NCBI GenBank assembly: GCA_964247135.1
Contig: CAXTTL010000049.1
Span: forward strand, 1-23,346
Length of the DNA stretch: 23,346 nt
Direction of reading: 5' to 3'
Source: an uncultured Deinococcales bacterium
GTDB taxonomy: Bacteria > Deinococcota > Deinococci > Deinococcales > JAAFIG01
Shown here: piece after piece, positions 1-23,346 of the stretch
Layout: the number at the start of each line of letters is the position of its first letter
How positions within the stretch are numbered: position 1 is the first letter of the stretch
The notes under the pieces: model-generated
The model's input: the letters and a program-made list of their open reading frames with translations, nothing else
The model's database searches: none
Told to the model about the DNA's origin: nothing
Program-made: the position numbers and the translations under genes

Positions 1-1284
1 CACAAGACTGAAGCGGAAGGCACCACAACAGGTGGTATGGGCATTTACTTAAACAACACCTCGAACGTCTCGTTGGCGCGGATGCAGTTGAATGACTTTG
101 ACAACTACGCGATCCGTGGCTCGACGGTCAACGGTTTTGCCATTTCTGACAGTGTGATCAATGGCACGAATGGCACCAACGGTACAATTGATACCTACGG
201 TGAAGGCAGCGTCTATTTTGGCAGTCCTTCGGGGGTGACAGGATTGACCGGTTCGGCAACCGTCACCAACCTCAACATCAGTGGTGGCTTTGCCCGCAAT
301 TTCTCGCTGGTCAACACAAGCGGCACACTCAACCGCTTCACGATCACTGGTAGCACCTTTGGTTTGACCAAAGCGACCAGCACTGGAAACAGTCTAACAA
401 TGGAAGCCCGCAATGGCGGGACGACACTCAACGCCACCGTCCAAAGCTCGAGCTTTCTGGGTGCATCAGGAGACTTGTTTAACTTCACTGGTCAAACCGG
501 CACGGTCATGAATTTAATTTTTGGCGGCGTTGGTCAAAGCAACACGCTCTCGAACAACCATCCACTCAACAACCTTGGCGGCGGTGGCATCAGTCTGTCA
601 ACCAATGGCTCGATGCGGTTCGATGTCAACCACAACACCTTCAGGGATGCCAGCGGTAGCGCCGTCGGGATGTATTTAGCCAGTACGGCAACCTCTCTGG
701 ATGGAAACTTTGACAACAACACCATTGGGGTGTCTGGTATTGCCGATTCTGGATCAAAGTCGGGCAACGGTATCTTTGTCTCCGCTCTTGGCGGCGGCAC
801 CATCACACTGGCAATCACCAACAACACCATCCAGCGCTACAGTGGTAATGCTGGCTTTTACGGAGATAACACAGGGGGCAGCTATCCAGTCAACTTAACC
901 ATGACTGGAAACACAATCCGTCAGCCTGGCGCAGGCGCCTTTGCCGCTTTTGCATTGACCAATGGTGCTCCGAGCAGCACGGACACAACCAACGTCTTTG
1001 CAAAAATCTCTGGCAATGACTTTAGCGATGGAGTCTCGGCAGGTCCTGACGTGTACCTGGGTGCCAGTGGCAGTGCCGCCGCCAGTCACACCTTTACGCT
1101 CTCGGGTGCGACCGCCGCAAATGTTGCCTCAGAAGTCGCCATCGAAACATTTATCAAGAATGCCAACAACTTGAACAATGCCTCTGTGAATACCATCGTG
1201 GATGCTTACACCGATGCTCCAGTCACGTTTTCTGCTTTTAAAGCATCTGCCAGTTTACCCCCGCTTCCCCTTGCACCTTTATAG
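1..1284 (+). CDS. Large secreted/surface beta-helix (parallel beta-strand repeat) protein, C-terminal part; 5'-truncated by the window
   Basis: Frame is open from position 1 (HKTEAEGTTTGG-MGIY...). Sequence is rich in G/N/S/T with recurring 'I.NNTI', 'ISGNDF' and 'GI.V' beta-helix-like motifs. Stop TAG ends at 1284. Confidence 0.7.
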   Translation, partial: HKTEAEGTTTGGMGIYLNNTSNVSLARMQLNDFDNYAIRGSTVNGFAISDSVINGTNGTNGTIDTYGEGSVYFGSPSGVTGLTGSATVTNLNISGGFARNFSLVNTSGTLNRFTITGSTFGLTKATSTGNSLTMEARNGGTTLNATVQSSSFLGASGDLFNFTGQTGTVMNLIFGGVGQSNTLSNNHPLNNLGGGGISLSTNGSMRFDVNHNTFRDASGSAVGMYLASTATSLDGNFDNNTIGVSGIADSGSKSGNGIFVSALGGGTITLAITNNTIQRYSGNAGFYGDNTGGSYPVNLTMTGNTIRQPGAGAFAAFALTNGAPSSTDTTNVFAKISGNDFSDGVSAGPDVYLGASGSAAASHTFTLSGATAANVASEVAIETFIKNANNLNNASVNTIVDAYTDAPVTFSAFKASASLPPLPLAPL

Positions 1285-1334
1285 CAATTCTGACTGGCAT
1301 CAAAACATAACAAGCCCTTAAAATAACCACCCTG

Positions 1335-1371
1335 AAAAGCTCGAGAATTGAAATGGTTCTCGAGCTTTTTT
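1335..1371 (+). terminator. Intrinsic terminator, possibly bidirectional, with CTCGAG in both arms
   Basis: AAAAGCTCGAGAA (1335-1347), 9-nt loop, TTCTCGAGCTTTTTT (1357-1371), about 50 nt after the upstream stop. Confidence 0.8.
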
Positions 1372-1466
1372 CATGAACGGTTCTCTTGGCGAGTATCAAG
1401 GCATGGTTGCTCGAGTTTGAAAGCAAGAACATTGAACACGTCGCAAACTCGAGTTAGACTCGAGCC

Positions 1467-1766
1467 ATGTTCTGGCGTCGTAAACCCGTTGATACCAAAC
1501 CGCAATACCTCAAAGCCGACGGCACGCTGGCGTACCGTGTGCGGGTCAAAACCGCCAAACGCGGTGAAATTGTCGAGATTCGGTTTACCAAATCTGGCGA
1601 TGTCAGTTCCCAGGAGGGCGGTGGGTATTTCGTGCGCAAGCACATCGTTGGACCGAATACTTTTGACCGTGCGACGCTCGAGATTCACTTTGGCGCAAAT
1701 TACGGCAACCCAAGTTTTAACGTCGAGGGTGGCGAGGTCGTGCCCGTTTCTGAATGGGTCGATTAA
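1467..1766 (+). CDS. Hypothetical 99-aa beta-rich protein (leaderless)
   Basis: Clean ORF with protein-like composition. -10-like TAGACT (1455-1460) lies 6 nt before the ATG. Confidence 0.75.
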   Translation: MFWRRKPVDTKPQYLKADGTLAYRVRVKTAKRGEIVEIRFTKSGDVSSQEGGGYFVRKHIVGPNTFDRATLEIHFGANYGNPSFNVEGGEVVPVSEWVD

Positions 1767-2737
1767 AGCTTAAAACCGTACCGTAAAAGCCGCTGCTCGA
1801 GTTCGAGGTCTTTGGCGGCTCGAGCGCCAAACCTGGACACCACCCAACCAGCAACCTGCGCGGCGAGTTCGGCGGCGGCGAGTGCATTTTTGGATTGCAA
1901 ATAATGTCCCAAAAACGCGCCACAAAACGCATCACCTGCACCCGTGGCATCGACGGCGGTGTCAATGGTGGCGGCAACTTGAAACGAGTTGTGTCCTTCG
2001 GCGATCAGTGCGCCGTTTTTGTCGAGTTTTAAGACGATCATGGTGTCTGGATACAGGTCTTGCAACGCCTCGAGCACCTCGGTTGGGGTTTTTGCACCCG
2101 TCATGGCGCGTCCTTCTTCTAGGTTTGGAAACAGAAAATCGACGCTCATTTCGCGGGTGGTGCGTCTGAATTCCTCGCGTCCAATTTCGCGGATCATCTG
2201 GTAACTGCCAGGGTCAAAACTGACGCTGGCACCCGCCTCGGTGGCAAGTTTGGCGGCACGCAGCGCGGCTTGGCGCGGCGGGTCGGTAAAGACACTCCAG
2301 GCGGTGATGTGAACGTGGCTCGAGGTTTGAATCGCGGCAATTGGCAGCTCAGTTGGCTCGAGCAAGAAATCTGCGCCCTGCGAGGTGATCATGCTTCGCT
2401 GTCCGCTCGAGTCGATCAAGACCAGAATCACACCGGTCGGGCTGGAATCCGTCCAGATGACGTGCGCTGCCACACCCTCGGCTTCCAGGTCTTGCACGGC
2501 AAACTCGCCAAAACGATCCCGTCCGACCTTTCCCAAAAACCCTGTTGGCATTCCGACCCTTGCTGCCCAAACCGCAACATTGGCGCTCGAGCCTCCTGGC
2601 GCGAGTTGCACGCGTCCTGTGGTGTCACCGCCGGGCAAAATGATTTGGTCGGGTTTGGTCAGCACGTCCCAGGCGAGGTCTCCAACGGCAAGCATGGGGC
2701 GGATAGTGTTTTGGGAATTCACAATGCCGAGAATCAT
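1763..2737 (-). CDS. PfkB/ribokinase-family carbohydrate kinase (start uncertain; GTG at 2722 or a later ATG is possible)
   Basis: N-terminal GGSSANVA...GKVGRDRFG motif and C-terminal DATGAGDAF PfkB signature. Confidence 0.92.
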   Translation of the reverse strand: MILGIVNSQNTIRPMLAVGDLAWDVLTKPDQIILPGGDTTGRVQLAPGGSSANVAVWAARVGMPTGFLGKVGRDRFGEFAVQDLEAEGVAAHVIWTDSSPTGVILVLIDSSGQRSMITSQGADFLLEPTELPIAAIQTSSHVHITAWSVFTDPPRQAALRAAKLATEAGASVSFDPGSYQMIREIGREEFRRTTREMSVDFLFPNLEEGRAMTGAKTPTEVLEALQDLYPDTMIVLKLDKNGALIAEGHNSFQVAATIDTAVDATGAGDAFCGAFLGHYLQSKNALAAAELAAQVAGWVVSRFGARAAKDLELEQRLLRYGFKL

Positions 2738-2809
2738 AACAGTTCAGTTGACGGCGGCTCGAGTAAGCCATTCAACGTAGTCGTACCTCACATTTTCTTA
2801 TGGTTTTCG

Positions 2810-2818
2810 TGCTAATGT
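2810..2818 (+). promoter_or_regulatory. Extended -10 promoter (TG-c-TAATGT) for the short intergenic transcript
   Basis: Matches TGnTAnnnT and predicts a TSS near 2824-2826. No convincing -35. Confidence 0.5.
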
Positions 2819-2824
2819 TTTTGT

Positions 2825-3004
2825 ACACCAGAAAGGGGGTGGTCCAACTGTTAAGCAAAAGATTTATGGTTGGTGGAGGTGCTCGTCGGGGCTAGCTCAA
2901 GCCGTCCCTTTTTTCAGGGCGACTGAATCCCGAATGCGGGCATGGGCATAGTCCCAGACCCAGGCGGGTATCGAAGGAGACCAGAATCATCTGGTCTCTT
3001 TTTT
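2825..3004 (+). ncRNA. Candidate stand-alone small RNA or micro-ORF transcript with extended anti-16S-3'-end element
   Basis: Bounded by a candidate promoter and a strong terminator. Contains AGAAAGGGGGTGGTCCAACTG (2830-2850), a second SD GGAGGTG (2875-2881), a short ORF ending at TAG 2893-2895, and several small hairpins. Confidence 0.55.
2977..3004 (+). terminator. Intrinsic terminator
   Basis: Perfect 9-bp stem GAGACCAGA-ATCA-TCTGGTCTC followed by T6. Confidence 0.88.
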
Positions 3005-3026
3005 ATTGTTGGCATAGAATAGAACC

Positions 3027-3473
3027 GTGAAACTCGAGGATTACACGCTGAATGTGCGTTACCGTGAGGATTGGAATTGTTTTGAAGCCAGCCTGAACGA
3101 ATTTTTTGCGCTGATCGCCAGCGGTCAAACCGAACGGGAAGCCCTGACCGAACTCGAGCGTTTGTACCTCGAGCGCGTGATTTATCTCGAGGCAATTGGC
3201 AAACCGCTGCCGATTCCTGGTGAAGCGCCAGAACCAATGTTTGCCACCAGCGCCAGGGTGGATGCTTTAAGTGGCACGGCAAGGGATTTTTTTCGGCGAG
3301 TATTGAGTTTGGATTACGACGATGTGTTCGTTTCCGACGCCACCAGGCTCGAGGAATTTGGCACGCTGGAATATTTGCGCGAAAAAATCAAACTCGAGTA
3401 CGGTGTGGACATTGGTTTTGACCTCGAGCAACCGCTTTGGGAAGTGCTGGGGAAGATTCGGGGTTTGGCTTAG
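3027..3473 (+). CDS. HicB-like N-terminal domain protein with an uncharacterised C-terminal domain (leaderless)
   Basis: N-terminus 'YTLNVRY.EDWNCFEA...IASGQTEREAL.EL...YLEAIGKPLP.P' fits the HicB partial RNase-H pattern (G.T.EEA...G..lP.P). TAGAAT (3015-3020) lies 6 nt before the GTG. Confidence 0.7.
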   Translation: MKLEDYTLNVRYREDWNCFEASLNEFFALIASGQTEREALTELERLYLERVIYLEAIGKPLPIPGEAPEPMFATSARVDALSGTARDFFRRVLSLDYDDVFVSDATRLEEFGTLEYLREKIKLEYGVDIGFDLEQPLWEVLGKIRGLA

Positions 3474-4096
3474 CCTGCCGTGCGCATCAAGATCAAGACC
3501 AGAACCGTTCCTGCCAAGGCGGTCAGCATTGCCGCAACTCGAGTTTTTTTCATGAACAAGGACAAGCCAAAACCCGTCACTGCCACCAGCAACAAAAATC
3601 CGCCCGACAGGTCAATCAGCCACGCCCAAGGCTTGCCCGAATCGCGTCCTCGGTGAAGGTCGTTTAACACCGCGACTGGTCCTTGCGCCACCACCTTGAG
3701 CGAGTAGGTTCCGTCCTTGATTTCGATGAACGCATCGGCGGCGTAGGCGGGCGCTCGAAAGCTGATGGATGCCTCGTTTTCGTCACTGCGGTGATCGGTC
3801 ACGCTGCCCTTTAAACCGTATTTGGCGCGTAAGGTTTCGGCGGTCGCCAGCCAGTCCACCTTGCCAGATTGCAACCAGGTTTTGGGCATTGTGCCAGTCA
3901 AATTTTGCTCGCTCGAGGCGCTGCCAAAAATCCATTCTGGATGGTTTAAGGTGATGCCTGTGGCAGCAAAGAACACCACCACCAACAGGCTGATCATCGA
4001 GGTGTACAGGTGCAACCAACGCACCAACAAGTACCAACTGCCTCGAGCTTTCGCCGGTTTTTTGGTCTGGATTTTAGCTTCGCTTAAGGTATTCAA
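3470..4096 (-). CDS. PepSY-associated TM helix domain protein
   Basis: Motifs RWLHLYTS...FFAATGITLNHPEW and LNDLHRGRDSG..W.WLID. Sits in the usual operon with DUF2271 and ApbE. Confidence 0.88.
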   Translation of the reverse strand: MNTLSEAKIQTKKPAKARGSWYLLVRWLHLYTSMISLLVVVFFAATGITLNHPEWIFGSASSEQNLTGTMPKTWLQSGKVDWLATAETLRAKYGLKGSVTDHRSDENEASISFRAPAYAADAFIEIKDGTYSLKVVAQGPVAVLNDLHRGRDSGKPWAWLIDLSGGFLLLVAVTGFGLSLFMKKTRVAAMLTALAGTVLVLILMRTAG

Positions 4097-4619
4097 GGTT
4101 CACCGTTTTCAGTTCGCCATCTGGGGTGAAAGATTGCTTTAAAACACTGCTGGTCAGGTTGAGTTTTTCCCTGAACAACTGGTACGGTCCGTGCTCTCGA
4201 GCCATTTCAATGCAGACGTAATACTCGCCTTGGCTCAGCAAATTGCCCTTGTCGTCCTTGCCGTCCCAGGTCAGGCTGTACTTGCCAGGTTGACGGGTTG
4301 GGCTTGAAACGGTAGTCGTTAGGTTGCCGCTGCGATACCAGCGTTTGAGTTCGTTGAGCCAACGCGAACCCTTACCAGATTGCTCGAACCACAATGCCAG
4401 TGTGCGGACTTGTGCGCCCTGGGCATTCTCGAGCCAGACCGCGACATACGGCGGGTGATACCCAAAACTACCCGCGCCAACGATTTCAAATCCGATGTCG
4501 AGTTTCATGGCGCTCGAGAGTTTCGCGGCTTGCGCCAAGCTTTTACCGACCAGCAAGGTCAAGGCTGCGCCCGTGGCTTGGAAGAGAAAGCTTCTGCGGC
4601 TGATTTGACTTTGTTTCAT
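4074..4619 (-). CDS. DUF2271 domain protein with Tat signal peptide
   Basis: Start revised to ATG 4619 (ATGA overlap with the upstream stop). Twin-arginine signal SRRSFL. Motifs PYVAVW.E...RTL.LW, WDGKDDKG and E.AREHG. Confidence 0.88.
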   Translation of the reverse strand: MKQSQISRRSFLFQATGAALTLLVGKSLAQAAKLSSAMKLDIGFEIVGAGSFGYHPPYVAVWLENAQGAQVRTLALWFEQSGKGSRWLNELKRWYRSGNLTTTVSSPTRQPGKYSLTWDGKDDKGNLLSQGEYYVCIEMAREHGPYQLFREKLNLTSSVLKQSFTPDGELKTVNLEYLKRS

Positions 4620-5512
4620 GATCTGACCTCCGTTGTCTGTAAGGCTTGAAAACTTTGATTTATTAGGACTTCCCCTGCAACTGTGACCAATAAACAACCG
4701 ACTTGCGAAGATTCGGTGAACGCCAAACTTTCCTGGGCTTCGAGCACACAGCAGATCGTGGCGATCACGTCGGCGCTGGCGGCATCGGGCGCGATGATCG
4801 TGACCTGGGCAATCTCGGTCACGGCTTTGGCGGCTCGAGGGTCGAAAATATGTGCCCCTCGGTGGGTGTGTCCGCTGGTTGCCACGCCCTGATTTTGAAT
4901 CCGAACTCGAGTCAATTCTGGAGCGTTGTCGGCTTTGGAAAATGGGTGGGCAATTGCGACCTCGAGCGTTCCAGTTCCACGGTGGCACAGATCGCCACCC
5001 AGGTTGACCAGCACTTCTTGCACTCCCTCGAGTTTGAAAGCGGCATTCACGGCTTGATCGGCGATTCGTCCTTTTGCCAGCGCATTAAAGTTGAGTTTGT
5101 GCGCGGTCAGTTTTTGGACTTGGTTTTCTTGCCAAATCCAGAGCGGATGTTGCACATCCTCGAGTTGTTCTTGGCGACGAATCGAATCATGGATTGCGGG
5201 ATGAAACGCGCCGTGGCTGATGTGCTGCCAGTGTTCTGCCGCCTCGAGCAACCAGCGCAAATCGGTTGACGGTGTCATGTTTCCTGCGGTTTGCCAACGG
5301 TTGAGTTCGCTTTCGGGCAAGAAATAACTGTAGACCCGCTCGAGCCTGGCAATTTCCTCGAGAATGGCATGTTCGGCTTTCAAGGCGGTGGCGTGGTTGT
5401 CCACCAGCAATTGCAACTCCAATGCCGTGCCAAGAATCCCTTCAAAACGCGCTTGGTGTTGCAACGCTCGAGGTTTAAAGAATTTTTTGATCGCTGGCAA
5501 AACCGAATTCAC
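4616..5512 (-). CDS. apbE: FAD:protein FMN transferase (ApbE family)
   Basis: Motifs LGT.LEL, SELNR, FNALAKG...D, VNLGGDL, ATSG...HIFDPR and AD..AT. Start revised to GTG 5512, which follows the SD AAGGAGG. Confidence 0.88.
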   Translation of the reverse strand: MNSVLPAIKKFFKPRALQHQARFEGILGTALELQLLVDNHATALKAEHAILEEIARLERVYSYFLPESELNRWQTAGNMTPSTDLRWLLEAAEHWQHISHGAFHPAIHDSIRRQEQLEDVQHPLWIWQENQVQKLTAHKLNFNALAKGRIADQAVNAAFKLEGVQEVLVNLGGDLCHRGTGTLEVAIAHPFSKADNAPELTRVRIQNQGVATSGHTHRGAHIFDPRAAKAVTEIAQVTIIAPDAASADVIATICCVLEAQESLAFTESSQVGCLLVTVAGEVLINQSFQALQTTEVRS

Positions 5513-5535
5513 GGGGCTGACCTCCTTGGTGGTGA

Positions 5536-5568
5536 ATCTTAAAATCCAAGGGTAACAGTTCGGTAACA
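5536..5568 (-). promoter_or_regulatory. apbE operon promoter: -10 TAAGAT with a TGTTACC direct repeat (11-bp period) over the -35 region
   Basis: GGTAACA at 5551-5557 and 5562-5568 on the + strand; ATCTTA at 5536-5541. Confidence 0.55.
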
Positions 5569-5576
5569 ACGCAACG

Positions 5577-6032: not shown

Positions 6033-6035
6033 GAG

Positions 6036-9663: not shown

Positions 9664-9849
9664 ATGACCAGTCCAGCCAAAACAACAACCAAAAGTGTTC
9701 GTAAGCCAGCCAACAAAACGGTGGTTAAACCTGTGGCTCAAGCCCCAAAAGTTGACCCTGTGATTGCCAAAACCAACAGCGAATTTTTTGGAACTTGGAC
9801 TGATCAAGAAGCAAAGGCTTTTGCCAAACGTCTTGGACGCAAGCTGTGA
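9664..9849 (+). CDS. Putative antitoxin, 61 aa, upstream of a PIN toxin
   Basis: Has its own promoter, and its stop overlaps the GTG of the PIN gene (GTGA). Position is typical of vapB. Confidence 0.7.
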   Translation: MTSPAKTTTKSVRKPANKTVVKPVAQAPKVDPVIAKTNSEFFGTWTDQEAKAFAKRLGRKL

Positions 9850-10250
9850 GTTTAAAAGCACGATTCGTCATCGATACCAACTTCGTGATCGAGCACCTTC
9901 GAGGCAATGAACAAGCCAAGAAGGTGTTTTCCATGTTGCTGCCCAAACAAATCTCTTTCAGTGTCATTACCTACCTCGAGTTTGCTGAAGGTGAGGCAAG
10001 TGTCAAACGCACAGCACGAGCCTCGAGAAGCTTACGGTTTTTTGAACCGTTCGAGCTTTTGCCTTTGAGCGTTGAAAGTGCAATCAAAACTGCTCGTGAA
10101 GGTGTTCGTCTGGGTGCATCAAGACGGGCTTTAAATGACTTGGCAATCGCTGCCACAGCGCTCGAGTATGGAAGAACTGTTCTCACCAAAAATATCACGG
10201 ATTTTACGGTGGTAAAAGGATTAAACGTACTTAATTGGGAAGACCTTTAA
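9846..10250 (+). CDS. vapC: PIN-domain VapC-type ribonuclease toxin
   Basis: PIN acidic residues present: IDTN, TYLEF, NDLAIAATA and LTKNITDF; 134 aa. Confidence 0.88.
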   Translation: MSLKARFVIDTNFVIEHLRGNEQAKKVFSMLLPKQISFSVITYLEFAEGEASVKRTARASRSLRFFEPFELLPLSVESAIKTAREGVRLGASRRALNDLAIAATALEYGRTVLTKNITDFTVVKGLNVLNWEDL

Positions 10251-10304: not shown

Positions 10305-10826
10305 GTGCCAGACTTAACCCAACTTGGAAAAGACATTGTCAAAGCCGCGTACCTCGAGGGGGATTTCTTGCTCTCGAGCGGTCAACGCAGCCAGTATTAT
10401 TTGGACAAGTACCGTTTTTCGACCCACCCAAAACTGTTAAAGCCAATAGCCGAAGGTTTGGCGGCACTCTTGCCAAGCGGTCTGACGGTTCTGGCAGGTG
10501 TGGAATTGGGTGCTGTTCCGCTCGTGACCGCGCTGTCGCTCGAGACTGGTTTACCGTTTGTGATTGTTCGCAAAGGCGCAAAAGATTACGGCACGGCAAA
10601 ATTGCTCGAGGGTGTGCTGCCCGACGGCGCGAAACTGGCGTTGGTCGAGGATGTGCTAACCACGGCAGGACAAGCGATTCGGGCGGCGAACATTTTAAAA
10701 GATTTGGGCGCGAGCATCGAAAAAATTGTCTACGTGGTTGACCGCGAACAGGGTGCGGATGCCAACATTCGGGCGGCAGGTTTTGAACCCGCAGCCCTTT
10801 TCACCAAAACCAGCCTGGGTATTTGA
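10305..10826 (+). CDS. pyrE: Orotate phosphoribosyltransferase
   Basis: Motifs GDF.LSSG..S.YY.D, IVRK..KDYGT and PRPP-binding VEDVLTTAG. Leaderless (TAGAAT 10293-10298). Confidence 0.95.
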   Translation: MPDLTQLGKDIVKAAYLEGDFLLSSGQRSQYYLDKYRFSTHPKLLKPIAEGLAALLPSGLTVLAGVELGAVPLVTALSLETGLPFVIVRKGAKDYGTAKLLEGVLPDGAKLALVEDVLTTAGQAIRAANILKDLGASIEKIVYVVDREQGADANIRAAGFEPAALFTKTSLGI

Positions 10827-10925
10827 GAATCTGCGCATTTAAAACTCGAGATTTCCAAATCAAATTTCTGGTATCCTCTCGAGCCAGATCAAGGCACTGT
10901 GATTGCTCGAGGAATTTCATTTTTT

Positions 10926-13514
10926 ATGGACGACCAAAACCCCACCCGCGTACCCCCAAGCAACCTCGACGCCGAAGCCAGCGTACTCGGCTCTATTCTT
11001 CTGGACAACGAGGCGTACTCGAGTCTCGAGGGAATGTTGCGCCCTGACATGTTTTACAAGGAAGCCAACCGCAAGATTTTCATGGCGATGGAAAACTTGA
11101 TTCAACGCGGTTCGCCCGTCGATACAGTCACGATTGTCGAAGAGCTGCGCACCAAAAACCAGATCGATGAAGTTGGTGGCGTGGCGTACCTGGTGGGTTT
11201 GTCCGACAGCGTGCCGACCAGCGTGTACTCCAAATTTTACGCCGGCATCGTGGTCGAAAAAGCGGGTTTAAGAAACTTGATTTCTGCCTCAAGCAAGATC
11301 ATGCAGCTTGCCTACGACGAATCTGCACCCGTGGGCGAGTTGATGGACCGGGCGGAAAAACTGATTTTTGAGGTTTCGACCCAGAAAAAACAGCAGACCT
11401 TTCTGGGAATGCACGAACTGGTGACTGAAACCTTCGAGTACATTTCCACGCTGACCAGCAACCCAAATTTTAGTACGGGCGTGCCGACAGGTTTCCGTGA
11501 TCTTGACGAGATGACCACAGGCTTGCAACCAGGGTCTTTGAATGTGTTGGCGGCTCGCCCGAGCATGGGCAAATGCCTGACCGCCAACACAATCATGGAC
11601 GTTCCAGGCACGGGCGAACGCATCAGGCTAGAGGAATTCATACAGCGCCAATTGCGGTGCGTGTACGGTGTGGCTGCCAGTGGCAAAGTCCGCCCGACGT
11701 TTGTGAGCAATCACATTGACAGTGGCATCAAACCCGTTTGGCGCGTCACTACACGACTTGGCAGGTTCGTTGAAGTCACAGGGCATCATCCGTTCTTAAC
11801 CGCAACAGGTTGGCAACCGCTTCATGACCTCAAAATTGGCGACAGCATCGGCGTCCCTCGAGAGATGGCTTTGTTCGGTGATGACTCGAGCAGCCCTGTT
11901 GAGCTGGCGCGTTTGATGGCGTATTTCATTGCGGAGGGTGGTTTGACGGACAGCAGCCCAGAGTGGACAAACACCGATCCAGTGCTCATTCAGGATTTCT
12001 CGAGCATCATTGCAGATTTTTTCCCAGAACTCAGTTTGCGTCAAGAGAAAATCACTTACGTTATCGCCCGATCTTATGTTCATGGCACACAAAAAAACCA
12101 AGCCAACCCACTGACTCAGTGGCTGAGGTCGCTCGAGTTGTGGGGCAAATCGGCGCTCGAGAAACAATTTCCAGATTGTGTCTGGCGTTTTGATGAAAGC
12201 CGATTGCGTGAATTCTTGCGGGTTTTGTTCAGTTGCGACGGTTCAATTTACAGTTTGCAAGGGAGGGCGCGGATTGAGTTCACGGTGGCTTCAGAACACT
12301 TGGCTCGAGATGTGCAACACGCGCTGGTGAAGTTTGGGATTGTCGCCAAGTTCTGGCAAAAAACCGAACGCTCTTACCGTGTGGAAATCACCGATCCTGA
12401 AGCGATTGCCAGATACCAAACCCGCATTGGTTGGTTGGGCGAAAAATCAACTCGAGTCTTTGAAACTCCTCGAGTTCGTGACAGCCGCAGCAACCTTGGG
12501 CATGTTTCAAAAGAAGTTTGGGAACGTGTGAAAATACTTGCCAAAGCTGGTGGTTTGTCCTTGACCAAACTTGCCGAACTCAGTGGCGAGAACGTCTCAA
12601 GCGGTTACAACGCTCACATCAATCGCAGTTTGCCACAATCGAGATTGCGACGTTACGCCGAGATTCTCGAGGATCGAGAATTGTCAAAACTCGCACACCC
12701 AGATTTGTACTGGGACACCATCTCGAGCATCGAATACTTGGGCGAACAGCAAGTCTACGACCTGACCGTGCCTGATGGCGCGAACTTTATTGCCCAAGAT
12801 GTTTGCGTTCACAACACTGCCTTCGCGCTGTCTATAGCGCAGAATATTGCCATCAGGCAAAACAAAACCGTGGCAGTCTTCAGCCTCGAGATGCCCGCCT
12901 CGCAACTCGTCTTGCGCATGTTGTGCGCCGAAGCTCGAGTGGACATGAACCGCGTGCGCAGTGGGGCTTTGAACGATAAAGACTTTGAAAGATTGGTCAA
13001 CGCGGCGGGTAAACTTGCCGAAGCGCCACTGTTTATTGATGATGCCAGCGATTTAAATATTACTGAGTTGCGCTCAAAGTCGCGTAAATTAATGGCAGAA
13101 CGTGATTTGCAAATGATTGTGATTGATTACATGCAGCTTATGTCTGGTTCACCAGGCAAAGGCAATGGTGGTGACAACCGGCAGCAAGAAATCTCGGTGA
13201 TCTCGAGGGGATTAAAGTCTTTGGCTCGAGAACTCAATATTCCGGTGCTTGTCTTGTCGCAGTTATCTCGAGCGGTGGAAGCACGCCCGAACCACCGTCC
13301 AATGTTGTCTGATCTTCGTGAATCTGGCGCGATTGAACAGGATGCAGACTTGGTTGCTTTCATTTACCGTGATGAATATTATCATAAAGACAGTGAAAAG
13401 CAAGGAATTGCCGAGATTATTATTGGTAAACAACGCAACGGTCCAGTTGGAACCTGCGAGTTACAATTTCACTCGCAGCACGTGCGTTTTAACGATCTGG
13501 CTCGAGAAGGCTAG
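10926..13514 (+). CDS. dnaB: Replicative DNA helicase DnaB, intein-containing
   Basis: N-terminal PP.NLDAE.SVLG, Walker A AARPSMGK|TAF split by the intein, and motifs FSLEM, IDYMQL, LSQLSR, DLRESGAIEQDAD and KQRNGP. Start is probably ATG 10926. Confidence 0.97.
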   Translation: MDDQNPTRVPPSNLDAEASVLGSILLDNEAYSSLEGMLRPDMFYKEANRKIFMAMENLIQRGSPVDTVTIVEELRTKNQIDEVGGVAYLVGLSDSVPTSVYSKFYAGIVVEKAGLRNLISASSKIMQLAYDESAPVGELMDRAEKLIFEVSTQKKQQTFLGMHELVTETFEYISTLTSNPNFSTGVPTGFRDLDEMTTGLQPGSLNVLAARPSMGKCLTANTIMDVPGTGERIRLEEFIQRQLRCVYGVAASGKVRPTFVSNHIDSGIKPVWRVTTRLGRFVEVTGHHPFLTATGWQPLHDLKIGDSIGVPREMALFGDDSSSPVELARLMAYFIAEGGLTDSSPEWTNTDPVLIQDFSSIIADFFPELSLRQEKITYVIARSYVHGTQKNQANPLTQWLRSLELWGKSALEKQFPDCVWRFDESRLREFLRVLFSCDGSIYSLQGRARIEFTVASEHLARDVQHALVKFGIVAKFWQKTERSYRVEITDPEAIARYQTRIGWLGEKSTRVFETPRVRDSRSNLGHVSKEVWERVKILAKAGGLSLTKLAELSGENVSSGYNAHINRSLPQSRLRRYAEILEDRELSKLAHPDLYWDTISSIEYLGEQQVYDLTVPDGANFIAQDVCVHNTAFALSIAQNIAIRQNKTVAVFSLEMPASQLVLRMLCAEARVDMNRVRSGALNDKDFERLVNAAGKLAEAPLFIDDASDLNITELRSKSRKLMAERDLQMIVIDYMQLMSGSPGKGNGGDNRQQEISVISRGLKSLARELNIPVLVLSQLSRAVEARPNHRPMLSDLRESGAIEQDADLVAFIYRDEYYHKDSEKQGIAEIIIGKQRNGPVGTCELQFHSQHVRFNDLAREG
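11574..12815 (+). mobile_element. Intein (414 aa) with a LAGLIDADG homing endonuclease, inserted in the DnaB P-loop
   Basis: Begins Cys (CLTANT), block B TGHHPF, LAGLIDADG-like LMAYFIAEGG and FLRVLFSCDGS, ends VYDLTV...NFIA...VHN, followed by Thr at +1. Confidence 0.95.
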
Positions 13515-16420: not shown

Positions 16421-16496
16421 AAAATCTCCTGTTGATTCCTACCAATCTTAAGCCAGTATCGTTGGGTATTCACAGTCAGCCGCGTATACTCGAACC

Positions 16497-16715
16497 GTGT
16501 CTCGAGCCTTTGTCAAAGAAGACAACCAAATCCCCGAACCCGAGAGGGCGGGCGAGTTTAGGGCGTTGTGGGGCTTGTCCCGCAGCCAGATTGAACCAGA
16601 CATCAAATTTAGCAGCGACGATTTGAATGCCGTGATCAAATGGGCACGCTCGAGAATCGGTGGTTTTTACTTGCTGCTCGACTCGAGCGGAACAATTTTG
16701 GGCGAAGTCGATTAA
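16497..16715 (+). CDS. Hypothetical 72-aa protein starting MSRAFVKED
   Basis: TATACT (16485-16490) lies 6 nt before the GTG. Stop overlaps the convergent amidase stop. Confidence 0.7.
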   Translation: MSRAFVKEDNQIPEPERAGEFRALWGLSRSQIEPDIKFSSDDLNAVIKWARSRIGGFYLLLDSSGTILGEVD

Positions 16716-18028: not shown

Positions 18029-18135
18029 AACACAGCGTACACAAAAACATGAGAATTTGTGTGACACACGGGGCTGTTTTCCTCACAAAGTCCCTCGTGG
18101 TGCCCGAGTATTGTTTCAGAAAGTCGTGTCAGCCA

Positions 18136-18165
18136 TTGACATGTCGGAGAATTCCGACGTATACT
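18136..18165 (+). promoter_or_regulatory. Promoter with a palindromic operator in the spacer (probable ArsR autoregulatory site)
   Basis: TTGACA (18136-18141), 18 nt, TATACT (18160-18165). Inverted repeat GTCGGA-GAAT-TCCGAC at 18143-18158. Confidence 0.75.
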
Positions 18166-18170
18166 TTGAC

Positions 18171-18485
18171 ATGGCTGTGACTGATATCTTCGGCGCGTTA
18201 GCCAACCCTGTACGCCGTCGAATCCTCGAGCTTTTAAACGAACACCCTCGAGCCGCAGGAGATATCGCCTCCGAATTTGAGTTAAACCGTCCCGCCATCT
18301 CTGAACATTTGCAGGTGTTGCGCAATGTTGGACTTGTCAAAGAAGTGCTCCATGGGCGAATGCACATCTACCATTTAAACGCCCCTCCATTATCGGAAGT
18401 GAGTCAATGGTTACACCCTTTTGAACACTACTGGCAACAACGCATCCAAGCCCTCACACAAACACTGAACGAGGAGAAACCATGA
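18171..18485 (+). CDS. ArsR/SmtB-family transcriptional regulator
   Basis: Motif IF.ALANPVRRRIL.LL...AISEHLQVLR..GLV....GR...Y.L. Start revised to ATG 18171 (leaderless). Confidence 0.92.
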   Translation: MAVTDIFGALANPVRRRILELLNEHPRAAGDIASEFELNRPAISEHLQVLRNVGLVKEVLHGRMHIYHLNAPPLSEVSQWLHPFEHYWQQRIQALTQTLNEEKP

Positions 18486-18898
18486 TCGAACCTGGACGAA
18501 TTCAATTGAAACAATTTATCCCGCATCCTCCAAGTAAAGTCTGGGCAGCCCTGACAACACCTGCGCTGCTTGCCAAATGGTGGGCGGCTGGCGATGTGCA
18601 ACCCATTGTCGGACATCGTTTCGTGCTCGACATGGGGGCGTGGGGACAGCAACCCTGCGAGGTTCTGGCAGTAGAATACGAGCACTTGCTCAGTTATTCA
18701 TTCGCGCCAGGAACATTGAACACCACAATCACCTGGCAACTCGAGGCTCAAGGTGAAGGCACACTTTTGTCCTTAGAACACAATGGATTTGATCTGGAGT
18801 CTCCTCTTGGCAAGACTGCATTTGAGGGAATGGGCAGTGGATGGGCAGGAATTTTAGCCCGAATAGAATCGGCAATTACAGCCTCAACAGCAAGCTGA
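18482..18898 (+). CDS. SRPBCC/AHSA1-like domain protein
   Basis: Motif P..KVW.ALT.P.LLAKWW...GT.L.LEH.GF...GW. ATGA-coupled to the ArsR gene, a common pairing. Confidence 0.9.
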   Translation: MIEPGRIQLKQFIPHPPSKVWAALTTPALLAKWWAAGDVQPIVGHRFVLDMGAWGQQPCEVLAVEYEHLLSYSFAPGTLNTTITWQLEAQGEGTLLSLEHNGFDLESPLGKTAFEGMGSGWAGILARIESAITASTAS

Positions 18899-18920
18899 AA
18901 CCCCTCGGCGCCGTTTGGTC

Positions 18921-19109
18921 ACTTGAGCGAACAATATAAACAAAAATTGCCGCTCGAGACAACAAGAATTCAATTTAAGACTTGTGCAACACTTGCTCCG
19001 CTTTGTAACTCGAGCGAACAGTGCTGATAAAAGTCATCGCTCGAGGCGTACCAATTTCGTGATTTAAGTTTTATGCAACACTTGCTCCGCTTTGTAACTC
19101 GAGCGAACA
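18921..19109. repeat. Diverged tandem duplication (units of 87 and 89 bp) including the lipA 3' end
   Basis: 18973-19020 and 19062-19109 match at 45/48 nt. Units are delimited by ACT(C/T)GAGCGAACA at 18921, 19008 and 19097. Confidence 0.9.
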
Positions 19110-19993
19110 AGCGCCCCAGAAACCACCTCGAGAAAACCGAGTTCCATCCCCTCGAGTCTGATCTCGTCAAACTCGTCTGGGGTCACGTACCGCTCGACGG
19201 GCAAGTGGTGTTTGGTCGGGCGCAAATACTGCCCAAACGTCACAATGTCAACCTTGTGCGCCCGAAGGTCGTGCATCGTCTCGAGAATCTCGGCACGGGT
19301 TTCGCCAAGCCCGAGCATCAGGCTGGTTTTGGTGTACACATTGCCAACGGTTTTTGCACCCGCCAGCACTTTTAAAGTCTGGTCGTAACCAGCCCGAGCA
19401 TCACGCACAGGATGGGTCAAACGCCGCACGGTTTCGATGTTCTGCGCGAACACCTCGACGCCAGAATTCACGACCAATGCCACATGCTCGAGGTTGCCGT
19501 TAAAATCTGGGGTTAAGCCTTCGACGCGCACGCCAGGGTTGAGGTCTTTGATGGCGCGAACCGTGCGGGCAAAATGGCTCGCGCCGCCGTCGGGTAGGTC
19601 GTCGCGGTCAACGCTGGTGAGCACCACATACTTCAAACCCATTTTTTGCACGGCTTCGGCAATGTGTTGCGGCTCGAGCGGGTCGAGTCTGCCGTTGGGA
19701 TTTCCGGTGTCCACCGCGCAAAACTTGCAGGCTCGAGTACAGACCGAACCCATCAGCATAAACGTTGCCGTGCCAGCCGCCCAGCATTCGGCAATGTTGG
19801 GACACATGGCTTCCTGGCAAACCGTGGATAGCCCATTTAAATCCACAATGTCTTTGATGCTGCGGTAGCCGATGCCGCTGGGCAGTGCCACTTTCAGCCA
19901 GTCTGGCTTGCGTTCGCGGACACTTTGCGCATCCTGGCGTTGCACGCCGTTGCGAACAACTTGGAAATCGTATTCTCGAGATGGTTTAATCAT
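19064..19993 (-). CDS. lipA: Lipoyl synthase
   Basis: Motifs RKPDWLK, CX4CX5C ([12 protein letters not shown]), radical-SAM CTRACKFC and VRSSY. Start is probably ATG 19993. Confidence 0.97.
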
Positions 19994-20052
19994 TTTTTGT
20001 CCTTGTCTGGGTTGCAGGCAAGGGCGCATTGCCATGCGCCCCTACGGGGTTT

Positions 20053-20727
20053 TTACGCGTAACTGACTTCTTGTCCTGCGAGTTCCTCGAGCCAATGGTA
20101 ATCCTGAAATTCTATTCTGAAGGCATTCTTGAGCCGATCTCGAGCGTCGTCCATGTCGATTTTGTGATTCAAGAGTTTCTCGAGGCTGGTCATTTTCGTA
20201 TCGGTCAAACCGCATGGCACAATCAATTCAAAGTCCTCGAGTTTGGTGTTGAGGTTGATTGCCAGACCGTGAAGCGCGACGTTTCGTTTGATGGCAACGC
20301 CGATGCTGCCAATTTTGTCGCTGTTCACGTACACGCCAGCGTAACCAGGGTTTGGACGGGCAGAGACACCGTATGTCTCGAGCAAACGAATTTGGACATT
20401 CTCGAGCCGCCGCAAAAAATCTCGGACGCGCCGACCCACAGGAAAAATCGCGTAAGCCACCAACTGCCCAGGTCCGTGATAGGTGACTGTGCCGCCACGT
20501 TCGGTGTTGATGACCTCAATGCCTTGCGCCTCGAGCATGGCTTTGGGGACGACCAGGTTTGTCTCTTCATTGTCTTTGCGTCCGTGTGTCACGACCCTGG
20601 GATGTTCGAGCAAGAGCAAGGTTGGCGGCGTTAATCCACTTGCCACGAGGTCGTGCGTCTGGAGCTGCAATTGGTAAGCATCGGGGTACGGCACAAGTCC
20701 AAGTTGTTTGGTGACAAAACCGTTCAC
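20053..20727 (-). CDS. lipB: Lipoyl(octanoyl) transferase
   Basis: Motifs LLEH..V.T.GR, RGG.VTYHGPGQLV.Y, KIGSIG, HG.A.N and IVPCG. Start is probably GTG 20727 (TAGACT 6 nt upstream). Confidence 0.96.
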   Translation of the reverse strand: MNGFVTKQLGLVPYPDAYQLQLQTHDLVASGLTPPTLLLLEHPRVVTHGRKDNEETNLVVPKAMLEAQGIEVINTERGGTVTYHGPGQLVAYAIFPVGRRVRDFLRRLENVQIRLLETYGVSARPNPGYAGVYVNSDKIGSIGVAIKRNVALHGLAINLNTKLEDFELIVPCGLTDTKMTSLEKLLNHKIDMDDARDRLKNAFRIEFQDYHWLEELAGQEVSYA

Positions 20728-20840
20728 TAGCAAAGTCTACTCTTTGATCGCAGCGTCAAGAGATTTGAGCAATACAATCCGCTCGAGTTAGCAAAATTAC
20801 AAAGCCATTACACCACCGTTTGGCGCTCGAGATTTGAGGC

Positions 20841-20906
20841 TTGACAAATGGGTTGTAAATCACTAAACTCTTCAATCATTAGTGCCATAACGTTTGATCT
20901 CTAACG
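20841..20906 (+). promoter_or_regulatory. Sigma70 promoter with candidate tandem MarR operators
   Basis: TTGACA (20841-20846), 17 nt, TAAACT (20864-20869). Imperfect palindromes CATTAG-N4-ATAACG (20877-20892) and CGTTTG-N4-CTAACG (20891-20906). Confidence 0.65.
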
Positions 20907-20909
20907 ATC

Positions 20910-21476
20910 TTGTTTGAACCGTCCAAAGCGGAGAAAAGAGCGTTTCTGTTGCCAGTTCATGACGATTTTAGCCTGCCCGAACTCGAGGTGATGCGACGTG
21001 CCAGCGGTTTGCCGATAGACGAACTGGCGCTGGCGGTGGCATCCAACATCTGGCGTGCCGCGCAAGGCTTCAAACTCAAAATGGAACGCGAGGTCTTGCG
21101 CGAGCACAACCTCAGTTTCGCCAGTTTTTCGACGCTGTTTATTGTCTGGATTTGGGGTCCAATCGAAACCCGTGAGATCGCCAAATCGCAAGCGGTCAGC
21201 AAAGCCACCGTCACCAGTTTGCTGATCACGCTCGAGAAACGCGGGTTGGTCAAACGCCGCGCCAGCAAGGTTGATCGGCGTTTGGTGATCGTCAAACTGA
21301 CCGATGCGGGACGGACGCTGATCGAATGGTTGTTCCCGAAATTCAACCAGGGCGAAAGCGAGATGGCTTCGGTTTTGACCGCTGATGAGCAAGAAACCCT
21401 GGCGCACTTGCTGCGCAAGATTGTGGCTGGGGTCAATACCGAACTCGAGGATGGAAGGGTGGAGGTCAGCGCATGA
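20910..21476 (+). CDS. MarR-family transcriptional regulator (start uncertain)
   Basis: Winged-helix motif VSKATVT.L...LEKRGLV.R.....DRR...V.LT..G. Confidence 0.92.
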   Translation: MFEPSKAEKRAFLLPVHDDFSLPELEVMRRASGLPIDELALAVASNIWRAAQGFKLKMEREVLREHNLSFASFSTLFIVWIWGPIETREIAKSQAVSKATVTSLLITLEKRGLVKRRASKVDRRLVIVKLTDAGRTLIEWLFPKFNQGESEMASVLTADEQETLAHLLRKIVAGVNTELEDGRVEVSA

Positions 21477-22948
21477 ACACGGTCAAGATTGCTGGCGTTC
21501 AAGTTTCAACCGATCACTTTATCAACAACCAACGCATCTCGAGCAGCCAGACTTTTGAAGCCCACAGCGCGATTGACGAAAGCCTGCTGGGGCATGTGGC
21601 TCGAGGAACGCAACTCGAGGTTGATCTGGCAGTAACGGCAGCCACAAACGCCTTCCAAACGTGGGCGGCACTTGGCGCGAGTGGGCGTTTTGAAATCCTC
21701 GAGCGACTGGCGCACATCATCGAAGCTCGGGTTGAAGATTTGGCGGCGGTGGAAACCATGAACAACGGTTCACTGCTCGAGGCGAGCCGTTTGCGGGTGA
21801 TGAAACGCGGCGGGCACAACATTCACTTTTTTGCGCAAATGGCAAAAGAGTTGTTGACAGACCCCAAAAACGAATGGGACACCGAAGCCGCCAAGAACGC
21901 GCACAACTCGGTTCGTTACGACCCTGCGGGCGTCACGGCACTCATCACGCCTTGGAATGCGCCATTCATGCTGGCAACCTGGAAGGTTGGACCCGCGCTG
22001 GCGGCAGGCAACACCGTGGTTTTAAAACCTGCCGAGTGGACGCCATTCACCGCGTCACTGCTGGCAGATTTTGCGCTCGAGGCAGGTTTGCCGCCAGGGG
22101 TGTTCAACGTGGTGCAAGGCTTGGGCAATGAGGCTGGCGCGGCGTTGGTGGCACACGAGGATGTCAAACGCATTTCGTTTACGGGCAGCGTGCCAACCGC
22201 CAGGAAGATTGCCGCCAGCGCCGCGCAAAACCTGACGCCGCTGAGCTTTGAACTCGGTGGCAAATCGCCGTTTATTGTGTTCAACGATGCCGACCTCGAG
22301 CTTGTAATTCGCAATGCAGTTGACCAATACGACAACTGTGGGCAGGTCTGTCTTTCGGGCACGCGCCTGTTGGTTGAGGCTGGTATTTATGACCGATTCC
22401 TCGAGCAATTTAAAAACGCAGTGAAAAACACCAAACAAGGTGACCCTCGAGAGGCAAGCACCGTCGTTGGTCCACTGGTCACACGGACGCACCTCGAGCG
22501 GGTGCAAGGCTTTGTGGATCGCGCCATAAAAGCCGGTGCGAAGCTCGAGTTTGGGGGAACAGTTTCACCAGATTTGGGAGGCTTGTACTTCCAACCAACT
22601 TTGTTTACCAACGTTCCTGACAGCGCAGAAATTTTAACCAAAGAAGTTTTCGGACCCGTTTTGACGCTGCAAAAATTCTCGAGCGAACGAGAGTTGGTAT
22701 CCCTTGCCAACAACACCGAATACGGACTAGCCGCCATGATCTTCAGCGCCGACCAAGAAAAAGCCGAACGAATCTCGAGTCAACTCAGCGCCGGCACGGT
22801 TTGGATCAATTGCTTTTACGTGCGTGACCTGGCAGCACCTTTTGGCGGCTCGAGGCAATCTGGCATCGGACGTGAGGGAGGACACTGGAGCTTTGATTTT
22901 TACTGCGACGTGAAAAATGTCATGCACCGCAAAAACACTTTCGCCTGA
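21473..22948 (+). CDS. Aldehyde dehydrogenase (resembles hydroxymuconic-semialdehyde/HpaE-like dehydrogenases)
   Basis: Motifs ITPWNAP, KPAEWTP, FTGS, ELGGKSP, catalytic Cys in GQVCLSG, EVFGPV and PFGG...SGIGREGG. Substrate assignment is inference. Confidence 0.93.
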   Translation: MNTVKIAGVQVSTDHFINNQRISSSQTFEAHSAIDESLLGHVARGTQLEVDLAVTAATNAFQTWAALGASGRFEILERLAHIIEARVEDLAAVETMNNGSLLEASRLRVMKRGGHNIHFFAQMAKELLTDPKNEWDTEAAKNAHNSVRYDPAGVTALITPWNAPFMLATWKVGPALAAGNTVVLKPAEWTPFTASLLADFALEAGLPPGVFNVVQGLGNEAGAALVAHEDVKRISFTGSVPTARKIAASAAQNLTPLSFELGGKSPFIVFNDADLELVIRNAVDQYDNCGQVCLSGTRLLVEAGIYDRFLEQFKNAVKNTKQGDPREASTVVGPLVTRTHLERVQGFVDRAIKAGAKLEFGGTVSPDLGGLYFQPTLFTNVPDSAEILTKEVFGPVLTLQKFSSERELVSLANNTEYGLAAMIFSADQEKAERISSQLSAGTVWINCFYVRDLAAPFGGSRQSGIGREGGHWSFDFYCDVKNVMHRKNTFA

Positions 22949-22956
22949 ACCCCAGG

Positions 22957-23042
22957 CACAGGAGGGTCTATGAGCCAACCACAGGAGGGTCTATGAGCCA
23001 ATCACAGGAGGGTCTATGAGCCAATCACAGGAGGGTCTATGA
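22957..23042 (+). repeat. 23-bp tandem repeat (3 full copies plus 1 partial) of RBS and start codon
   Basis: CACAGGAGGGTCTATGAGCCAA(C/T) begins at 22957, 22980 and 23003, with a partial copy at 23026. Confidence 0.95.
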
Positions 23043-23346
23043 ACTCGAGCAACAATTCGCAGCTTGGTCAACCCAAGCTCACGGTACTGGACGCCATTGC
23101 GCAATCCTTGGCAATTGGTCCAGTTTTATCGGCAGGCTTGTTGGCTGGACTGGTCGCGGGTGCGGCTGGCAGCGCCGCGCCGTTGGCGACAATTCTCGGC
23201 GCGATTGGTTCGATCTGCGTCGGCTGGGTGATCGTGCTGTTTGCAAGGCAGTACACGGGCGCGGGCGCCATTTACGATTATGTGCGCCGTTCGGCGGGCG
23301 CAACGCTCGGTTTGTTCACCGCAGGCATGTATTTTATTGGCGCGAT
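23039..23346 (+). CDS. APC-family amino acid/amine permease, N-terminal part (3'-truncated; absent from the ORF track)
   Basis: Hand translation MNSSNNSQLGQPKLTVLDAIAQSLAIGPVLSAGLLAGLVAGAAGSAAPLATILGAIGSICVGWVIVLFARQYTGAGAIYDYVRRSAG... shows hydrophobic TMs and the APC-type 'AG..Y.YV' motif. SD AGGAGG upstream. Confidence 0.85.
   Translation, partial: MNSSNNSQLGQPKLTVLDAIAQSLAIGPVLSAGLLAGLVAGAAGSAAPLATILGAIGSICVGWVIVLFARQYTGAGAIYDYVRRSAGATLGLFTAGMYFIGA

Follow-up and report, generated by a model that had tools for sequence, protein, structure and literature searches.

A stretch of 23,346 nucleotides from an uncultured Deinococcales bacterium (contig CAXTTL010000049.1 of assembly GCA_964247135.1; hereafter the window, meaning the whole stretch at its full length) raises a simple question: why does it carry the palindrome CTCGAG so many times, and what holds the word there? 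An initial annotation, made from the sequence alone, had counted about 168 copies against about 6 expected and had likened them to the highly iterated palindrome (HIP) HIP1 of cyanobacteria and to DNA uptake sequences. The exact count is 168, with a mean spacing of 139 bp, against a mean of 4.85 (standard deviation 2.22, maximum 12) in 100 dinucleotide-preserving shuffles of the window, none of which reached 168. We conclude that the HIP-like character of CTCGAG is genuine, in a phylum new for such words, and that a weak bias acting on the whole word keeps it there. With some reserve, we liken it, as a highly iterated palindrome of an uncultured Deinococcales family, to HIP1 and to DNA uptake sequences.

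Abundance of CTCGAG in the window and the genome

The exact copies are dispersed over positions 1..23346, are assigned to no strand and have flanks without a common sequence. Within the window, the GC (guanine plus cytosine) content of which is 0.48-0.55, 145-150 sites lie in coding and 18-23 in non-coding DNA, at densities of 7.15-7.24 and 6.9-7.6 per kb, respectively. The genes hold 145 sites versus 20.0 +/- 3.6 after synonymous-codon shuffling (maximum 30, n = 500). This, together with the equal density of non-coding DNA, bears out the earlier argument that Leu-Glu codon usage alone is inadequate to account for the word.

The source assembly (G000; 5.09 Mb in 386 contigs, 84% complete), in which the window is contig C49, contains 33,925 CTCGAG sites, or 6.66 per kb, such that 4.0% of all its bases lie within the word; the zero-order expectation is 1,371, giving a ratio of 24.7. 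On each contig longer than 5 kb the word outnumbers every other hexamer, and genome-wide it is 2.3 times as frequent as the next one, the runners-up being words that overlap it. Its enrichment is not limited to the contig of the window, since a density of 2.6-10.5 sites per kb is seen on each of the 297 contigs longer than 5 kb, and its observed-to-expected count ratio is 23-26 in every GC class. The reversed word GAGCTC, which has the same composition, has 0 copies in the 5.09 Mb. Among the 16 words of the form NTCGAN, CTCGAG alone is high (33,925 versus 121-2,188 for the remaining words); therefore, the hexamer gives rise to the TCGA excess, and not the other way round. Octamers and decamers containing CTCGAG show no extra enrichment (Markov ratios 0.44-1.11), making the bare hexamer the unit. 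A maximum-order Markov expectation for the hexamer itself (ratio 1.24) was uninformative, because 88% of CTCGA words are already inside CTCGAG.

For the coding controls we used our own crude gene caller, which yields 4,524 genes in G000 and 86.6% coding DNA. Here, too, the density is similar in coding (6.57 per kb) and non-coding (7.24 per kb) DNA, and the claim that the word occurs in all three frames and in genes on both strands was confirmed, with 18,134 copies as CTC|GAG (62% of the coding sites), 6,620 as nCT|CGA|G and 4,261 as nnC|TCG|AG. Non-coding DNA, at 46% GC, has 4,902 sites versus 141 expected from a zero-order and 129 from a first-order Markov model (35-fold), and the 29,015 coding sites compare with 4,034 +/- 46 in within-gene synonymous shuffles (7.2-fold), which thus explain 14% of them. 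The latter control is conservative because it keeps a codon usage that is inflated by CTCGAG itself. The enrichment hence outlasts control for amino acids, codons and TCGA, a test on which the initial annotation had made its claim depend.

The effect extends to the proteins. Leu-Glu pairs are encoded as CTC-GAG in 18,134 of 23,576 cases (76.9%), as opposed to 11.2% expected from codon frequencies, and the dipeptides themselves are in excess, with observed-to-expected ratios of 2.35 for Leu-Glu and 1.61 for Ser-Ser versus 1.01 for Glu-Leu. G000 has 158-188 Leu-Glu pairs in orthologue columns for which genomes from three further families have 52, 91 and 134-139; the counterparts of the G000 pairs in these are mostly Leu-Asp, Leu-Lys, Leu-Arg, Leu-Thr, Val-Glu or Ile-Glu. 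Therefore, the pressure is exerted on DNA and prevails over weak protein constraints. CTCGAG is neither a repeat element nor a codon effect, and the force behind it has sufficed to have 77% of Leu-Glu pairs written as CTC-GAG and to enrich proteins in Leu-Glu and Ser-Ser.

The spacing of the sites in G000 is near exponential (mean 148 bp, coefficient of variation 0.96; variance-to-mean ratio 0.91 in 500-bp windows). Distances below 20 bp occur at 0.25-0.56 times the exponential expectation, those of 50-200 bp are in mild excess, and the largest gap between sites is 2,644 bp. A distance of 6 is never seen genome-wide because GAGCTC would arise. Spacers between genes have 6.9 sites per kb when divergent, 7.6 when tandem and 8.1 when convergent. 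Around the genes, the density is about 7 per kb except in the first 25 bp past stop codons (12.0 per kb, a 1.7-fold peak) and at -50 to -25 before start codons (9.3 per kb). Any two copies of the word can pair with each other, and neighboring pairs could give hairpin stems.

Conservation, turnover and spread across the phylum

A comparison with a congener, in which 173.6 kb of G005 was aligned to G000 at 85.7% identity, shows how the word is maintained. In G005, 1,045 of 1,339 CTCGAG sites of G000 (78%) are kept, versus 45.7% for all hexamers, ranking the word 3rd in retention among 1,759 hexamers with at least 40 occurrences each; the two higher-ranked ones contain ATG. The same holds in non-coding DNA, where 127 of 172 sites are common to both genomes: a retention of 74%, whereas the identity of the flanks predicts ~23%. 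Per-base identity is 0.90-0.95 within the word and 0.73-0.88, mostly 0.75-0.82, in the 20-base flanks, resulting in a sharp conservation footprint of exactly 6 bp with unprotected flanks.

There are 476 unshared sites, 461 of them aligned without gaps and 15 with gaps, and 260 of the 476 differ by a single base (202 transitions and 58 transversions), these differences being spread evenly over the word with 41-48 at each of the six positions. CTCGAG is thus gained and lost by single point substitutions, anywhere in coding (all frames) and non-coding DNA. Across genera and families 20-22% of the sites coincide, versus 7-10% for all hexamers; therefore, single sites turn over while the density is held. 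In sum, a force that treats the exact hexamer as one unit holds the word at ~25-35 times the count that composition predicts.

The strength of this force can be gauged from the words that differ from CTCGAG at one position. In non-coding DNA the composition-normalized ratio of CTCGAG to its one-off variants is 13-61 (two CTAG-containing variants being left out). One-off variants that differ by a transition are 1.6-2.6-fold enriched. Under a simple mutation-fixation balance the ratio of the word to its variants would equal exp(S), with a scaled strength S of ~2.6-4. Such values predict losses five to ten times slower than neutral, with which the ~five-fold slower loss seen agrees, and they likewise predict ~77% saturation at Leu-Glu. 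Taken together, the non-coding and synonymous sites point to one weak force per site.

The word is a property of the family and, in weaker form, of several other lineages of the phylum. All 18 other genomes of the same family, representing five genera, have 4.3-6.8 CTCGAG per kb. In a survey of 201 Deinococcota genomes several other lineages are intermediate (2-3.6 per kb), as guessed at the outset. In five of these the enrichment is independent of context, with non-coding DNA 8-11-fold enriched and 58-79% of Leu-Glu written as CTC-GAG. In high-GC relatives the ratios to synonymous shuffles are only 1.8-2.0, and codon choice explains part of the count there. In the large genus g9, CTCGAG equals its reversed-word control, and in genus g7 (83 genomes) it is avoided, at 0.01-0.25 per kb; restriction targets are generally avoided, and the values for g7 fit this. 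Among named organisms, nine Meiothermus loci have 1.9-3.0 and the Calidithermus loci 4.5-5.4 CTCGAG per kb, the loci being only 3.4-7 kb each. The viral contigs dense in CTCGAG among the matches listed are high-GC and have many GAGCTC and GGCC, unlike the family, and are hence uninformative on the phages of the family.

Candidate enzymes and explanations

The initial annotation had suggested a tie to an XhoI/PaeR7I-type or TCGA methyltransferase, to methyl-directed repair or recombination, to chromosome organization or to DNA uptake. The XhoI-family nuclease (PF04555) has 0 matches in G000, at its 84% completeness, and in G009 and G012, and its matches in 4 of the 201 Deinococcota genomes include none in the CTCGAG-rich family (these three family genomes being searched). 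Two of the loci, G021:C1:74896-76793 (L296) and G104:C1:1093829-1096226 (L299), pair the nuclease with methylases of unrelated classes, namely an N6_N4 methylase (340 amino acids) in G021 and a TaqI-like methylase (583 amino acids) in G104. The nuclease of G104 is interrupted by stop codons, and G021 has 3,937 CTCGAG despite its nuclease. Compared with either of these two XhoI-adjacent methylases, no methyltransferase of the family exceeds 28% identity across its length.

G000 does possess a rich complement of restriction-modification genes, including nuclease-methylase pairs of the NgoPII, Eco29kI, SacI-like and MvaI/BcnI types, two MmeI-like enzymes, a type I system, a methyltransferase-SNF2 fusion and three solitary N6_N4 methylases. 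Solitary methyltransferases lie at C36:20010-21056 and C4:28580-29977. Four methylases were followed as candidates across the 18 other family genomes and rejected. The C36:20010-21056 enzyme has matches in 5 of the 18 at E-value cut-offs and close intact orthologues in 2; the corresponding counts are 9 and 4 for the C207/C4 methylase, and 6 and 1 for that at C4:28580-29977, with 2 further close copies that have internal stops. The C112 methyltransferase-SNF2 protein has matches in 3, with the best only 35-45% identical. Judging from these homology counts, none of the four appears to be family-wide. A census of five Pfam families in five further family genomes and the frames of G000, in which 56 frames were clustered, gave no methyltransferase group in more than 3 of the 6 genomes, gene presence being a weak proxy in such a count and specificities not being readable from sequence. 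No PF01555 methylase occurs in G011, a complete genome in a single contig, and a screen of the G000 gene calls for [DNS]PP[YFW] gave 39 matches, 21 of which were put through Pfam, with no further DNA methylase. Of the initial suggestion, then, the tie to such an enzyme is not supported, with no XhoI-family nuclease in G000 and no methylase group common to more than 3 of the six genomes, and the HIP-like description to which it was attached stands.

As for methyl-directed repair, MutH was found in 2 of 31 genomes, and neither it nor the very-short-patch repair nuclease Vsr was found in G000. DUF559 genes, with a Vsr-like endonuclease fold, were considered as a specific determinant and rejected: they are multi-copy in 16 of the 18 family genomes, yet all 3 genomes of family f3 and 2 of the 3 from family f4 have them too. 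The family genomes that have them show 1-11 matches each, and G000 has four (C142:2027-2323, C61:2809-3129, C252:2796-3104 and C290:138-449), one of them with stop codons.

Many other palindromes are very strongly avoided in G000, including GGCC (380 copies, 0.02-fold), GGGCCC (1), CGGCCG (3), AGGCCT (4), CGTACG (5), GGATCC (7), CCGCGG (11) and CAGCTG (15), as well as CTAG (0.07-fold). Pairs matching some of these words (NgoPII-, Eco29kI- and MvaI/BcnI-like) lie at C14:36040-37933, C178:2933-4752 and C189:4080-5632, and a SacI-like nuclease stands beside a D12-class adenine methylase at C320:1064-2985. GAGCTC has at most 25 copies in 15 of the 18 family genomes.

How, then, does CTCGAG compare with known systems? 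HIP1 and the alternate HIPs are, in the passages of the papers that describe them, short, exact and hyper-abundant palindromes of coding and non-coding DNA, which spread by substitution without indels, are conserved beyond background and have a debated function (PMC5861425, PMC4390886, PMC13756078). CTCGAG fits the HIP in this broad sense, being an exact word in genome- and family-wide excess, in all frames, without conserved flanks, and with substitutional turnover and positional conservation, as the HIP-like description in the initial annotation had anticipated. The differences are nonetheless several. HIP1 is a cyanobacterial octamer and CTCGAG a hexamer in Deinococcota; HIP1 proper (GCGATCGC, with a CGATCG/GATC core) is not the word here, CGATCG having 47 copies in G000 (0.03-fold expectation); and a distortion of the proteome has been measured for CTCGAG here. 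A cognate methyltransferase wherever the palindrome is abundant is one criterion for a HIP, after Elhai 2015. HIP1 has DmtA and DmtC, whereas no conserved cognate methyltransferase was found for CTCGAG among six family genomes. The density of 6.7 per kb contrasts with ~1 per kb for HIP1, and the first- and last-base bias among variants that is described for HIP1 is not seen in the variants of CTCGAG (both in the pertinent passages of PMC4390886). A term search finds no CTCGAG string in the HIP papers PMC4390886 and PMC5861425, and the passages of PMC13756078 returned for other terms do not have it. A full-text literature search, the coverage of which lies outside subscription journals and supplements (with possible palindrome tables), gave no report of CTCGAG hyper-abundance in Deinococcota.

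The DNA uptake sequences of Neisseria and the uptake signal sequences of Pasteurellaceae are similar in being lineage-wide words that are gained by substitution, leave a mark on peptides and have variant forms in relatives, and the competence channel ComEC is present here as well, albeit non-discriminating. They differ in having 9 bases or more, in being asymmetric and in often forming inverted pairs at terminators, as opposed to a 6-base palindrome with uninformative flanks; the only related sign for CTCGAG is its 1.7-fold peak right after stop codons. We know of no uptake bias in Deinococcota, and no receptor was identified in this analysis. XhoI and PaeR7I have the same recognition sequence, and nucleases of this family exist in the phylum (4 of 201 genomes), but they are absent from the family genomes searched, and the word is 25-fold enriched here. 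A palindrome can become more frequent through a repair bias tied to its site, as with Vsr repair and the CCWGG excess in E. coli. That case differs from the present one, where no Vsr was found in G000, CTTGAG and CTCAAG, the variants that deamination would yield, show no depletion (1.16-fold) and the six positions are protected alike; the Vsr-like DUF559 genes also occur in families without enrichment. Elsewhere, CTCGAG carries 5-methylcytosine in Halorubrum, according to part of Anton et al. 2021 (PMC8112702). In Nocardia, as the relevant passages of Blow et al. 2016 (PMC4752239) describe it, an orphan, non-restriction methyltransferase targets the same hexamer, which is likewise enriched rather than avoided; there the motif clusters locally near dnaA and the replication origin, whereas here it is genome-uniform and no such methyltransferase was found.

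Among the explanations that we weighed, we lean, tentatively, to a drive coupled to DNA exchange or repair in which the word serves as a 'self' tag, over a methylation ratchet, an architectural or RNA role, and a by-product. The force would be a weak fixation bias per site, of scaled strength ~3-4, exerted by a putative protein that reads CTCGAG as a type II restriction or modification enzyme would. This reader would most likely act during uptake, recombination or repair of homologous DNA from relatives; word-carrying alleles would then be fixed more often than word-free ones, amounting to a molecular drive that tags the resident DNA as 'self'. Methylation of CTCGAG may belong to the reading, although no conserved methyltransferase backs this. 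Equal protection at each of the six positions speaks against a repair process centered on a single modified base, and the want of a conserved methylase speaks, if weakly, against a HIP1-style model; a classical uptake sequence is disfavored by the shortness of the word along with the absence of enrichment in g7 and g9. The more specific scenario, that a HIP-type architecture arose independently in Deinococcota with a putative non-methyltransferase reader tagging the resident DNA and biasing fixation after exchange or repair, appears doubtful.

Several points weigh against this drive. The analysis identified no reader protein. ComEC, detected in 18 of 19 family genomes (G000 included) and 30 of 31 overall, is compatible with uptake, but 12 of 12 genomes of families without enrichment have it too, and it does not discriminate. 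The large genera that lack enrichment or avoid the word, g9 and g7, may be Thermus and Deinococcus; to our knowledge these, the two genera of the phylum with experimentally studied competence, take up DNA without sequence preference. Known uptake sequences have 9-12 bases, are asymmetric and occur about once per kb, in contrast to a 6-base palindrome at 6.7 per kb. The near-random spacing of CTCGAG gives little sign of selection for even coverage, and in between-species data, selection on function is inseparable from biased conversion or drive. Lastly, gene presence has limited power to reveal a determinant: while GAGCTC, the presumed target of the SacI-like nuclease, is near absent in 15 of the 18 family genomes, homologues of that nuclease were detected in no more than 10 of them (6 close and 4 at 25-27% identity) and in 0 of 12 genomes from other families. 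Therefore, a compositional mark can outlast its gene, or the gene can escape an incomplete metagenome-assembled genome.

This last point can be counted for a methylation-coupled mechanism of the kind proposed for HIP1, in which an orphan CTCGAG methyltransferase and methyl-directed or methyl-sensitive repair would turn near-sites into sites and protect existing ones. A type II methyltransferase reads just such a word, an exact palindrome of 6 bp whose footprint is sharp and equally wide, CTCGAG is a genuine methylation target in Nocardia (PMC4752239) and Halorubrum (PMC8112702) going by the portions of those reports on the motif, restriction-modification shapes G000 strongly (GGCC 380, GAGCTC 0 and CCGCGG 11 copies, with matching pairs present), and solitary methyltransferases such as those at C36:20010-21056 and C4:28580-29977 are at hand. 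We nevertheless consider it rather unlikely. No methylase group exceeds 3 of 6 family genomes and G011 lacks PF01555; the four tested enzymes occur in 3-9 of 18 genomes, with close intact copies in 1-4, and are at most 28% identical to the XhoI-adjacent methylases; MutH was found in 2 of 31 genomes and Vsr was not found in G000. Moreover, losses even over six positions are unlike repair at one methylated base, and unlike the first- and last-base bias that PMC4390886 reports, in the passages concerned, for HIP1.

Direct selection of CTCGAG as a site for an abundant architectural or segregation protein, or for an RNA role through self-complementary pairing, would suit ~34,000 sites that span the genome with no gap above 2,644 bp, the mild deficit below 20 bp with the excess at 50-200 bp, and the 12 sites per kb in the first 25 bp past stops. 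The nearly exponential spacing, however, speaks against this, and the motifs of nucleoid proteins are usually longer or degenerate and AT-rich rather than an exact 6-mer; a purely RNA role is at odds with the like densities of divergent (partly untranscribed) and convergent spacers (6.9 versus 8.1 per kb). We regard selection of this kind as distinctly unlikely. Most improbable of all is that the word is a side effect, whether of codon or amino-acid usage, of a Leu-Glu coding habit kept as a high-GC relic, of mutation that depends on context or of the avoidance of many other palindromes. The share of coding sites in the CTC|GAG frame (62%), the shuffle ratios of only 1.8-2.0 in high-GC relatives and the 1.6-2.6-fold enrichment of transition variants might be cited for it, but it is contradicted by the 35-fold enrichment of non-coding DNA at 46% GC, the mere 14% of coding sites explained by shuffles, the ratio of 23-26 in every GC class, the 0 copies of GAGCTC and the conservation of CTCGAG well above its flanks in non-coding alignments.

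For thirty years HIPs have been known from hardly anywhere but cyanobacteria, with their function debated; CTCGAG adds a second, apparently independent and far denser case. Its word, phylum and variant spectrum differ from those of HIP1 and no conserved methyltransferase was found, such that it tests which features of the HIP1 model are general. It further illustrates that pressure on a six-letter DNA word can alter amino-acid sequences proteome-wide (Leu-Glu 2.35-fold). In practical terms, the CTCGAG count along with the near absence of GAGCTC offers a simple compositional marker for the family in metagenome binning, and experiments could start from the weaker form seen in loci of named Meiothermus and Calidithermus. 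If an independent HIP-type drive does operate here, a bias would have put 4% of the bases into one word and rewritten proteins across a bacterial family, and the long-open question of HIP function would become testable outside cyanobacteria through cultured Meiothermus and Calidithermus.

Local features of the window and CTCGAG-free stretches

Both intergenic clusters reported in the initial annotation are where it had placed them. Five copies (at 1340, 1359, 1410, 1448 and 1459) span 1340..1464, between a gene ending at 1284 and the next gene, with the hexamer alone recurring and no repeat unit common to the DNA between copies. Three copies (at 10845, 10878 and 10906) span 10845..10911 upstream of dnaB, again without a common repeat unit between them, and are flanked by genes for a phosphoribosyltransferase-like protein (10305-10826) and DnaB (10899-13514). 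The closest pair of the window, with sites 7 bp apart (CTCGAGTCTCGAG), lies inside dnaB at 11018..11030. Like the single sites, neither the clusters nor this pair are assigned a strand.

DnaB contains an intein at about 11573..12812 on the plus strand, with Intein_splicing and LAGLIDADG_3 domains. It carries 10 CTCGAG sites (11857-12722), i.e. ~8 per kb, which is full density despite its being a mobile insert; it is present in the congeners G001-G003 and absent from G004 and G005. At 9846-10250, a solitary open reading frame of 134 amino acids encodes a PIN domain and is possibly the toxin of a toxin-antitoxin pair.

The longest CTCGAG-free stretches of G000 (1.9-2.6 kb) include C70:14167-16418, C13:11892-14536, C135:845-3324 and C1:102560-104482. 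As a sign of late foreign DNA such gaps are weak, the observed-to-expected ratio being 23-26 in all GC classes, and an Rfam scan of them gave no RNA match. The four stretches sit in low-GC regions (0.33-0.46, flanks included) and have genes of an accessory type, among them one for a 630-amino-acid AAA ATPase-like protein, a pilin-like N_methyl gene beside a Wzy_C-like one, and reading frames without Pfam domains.

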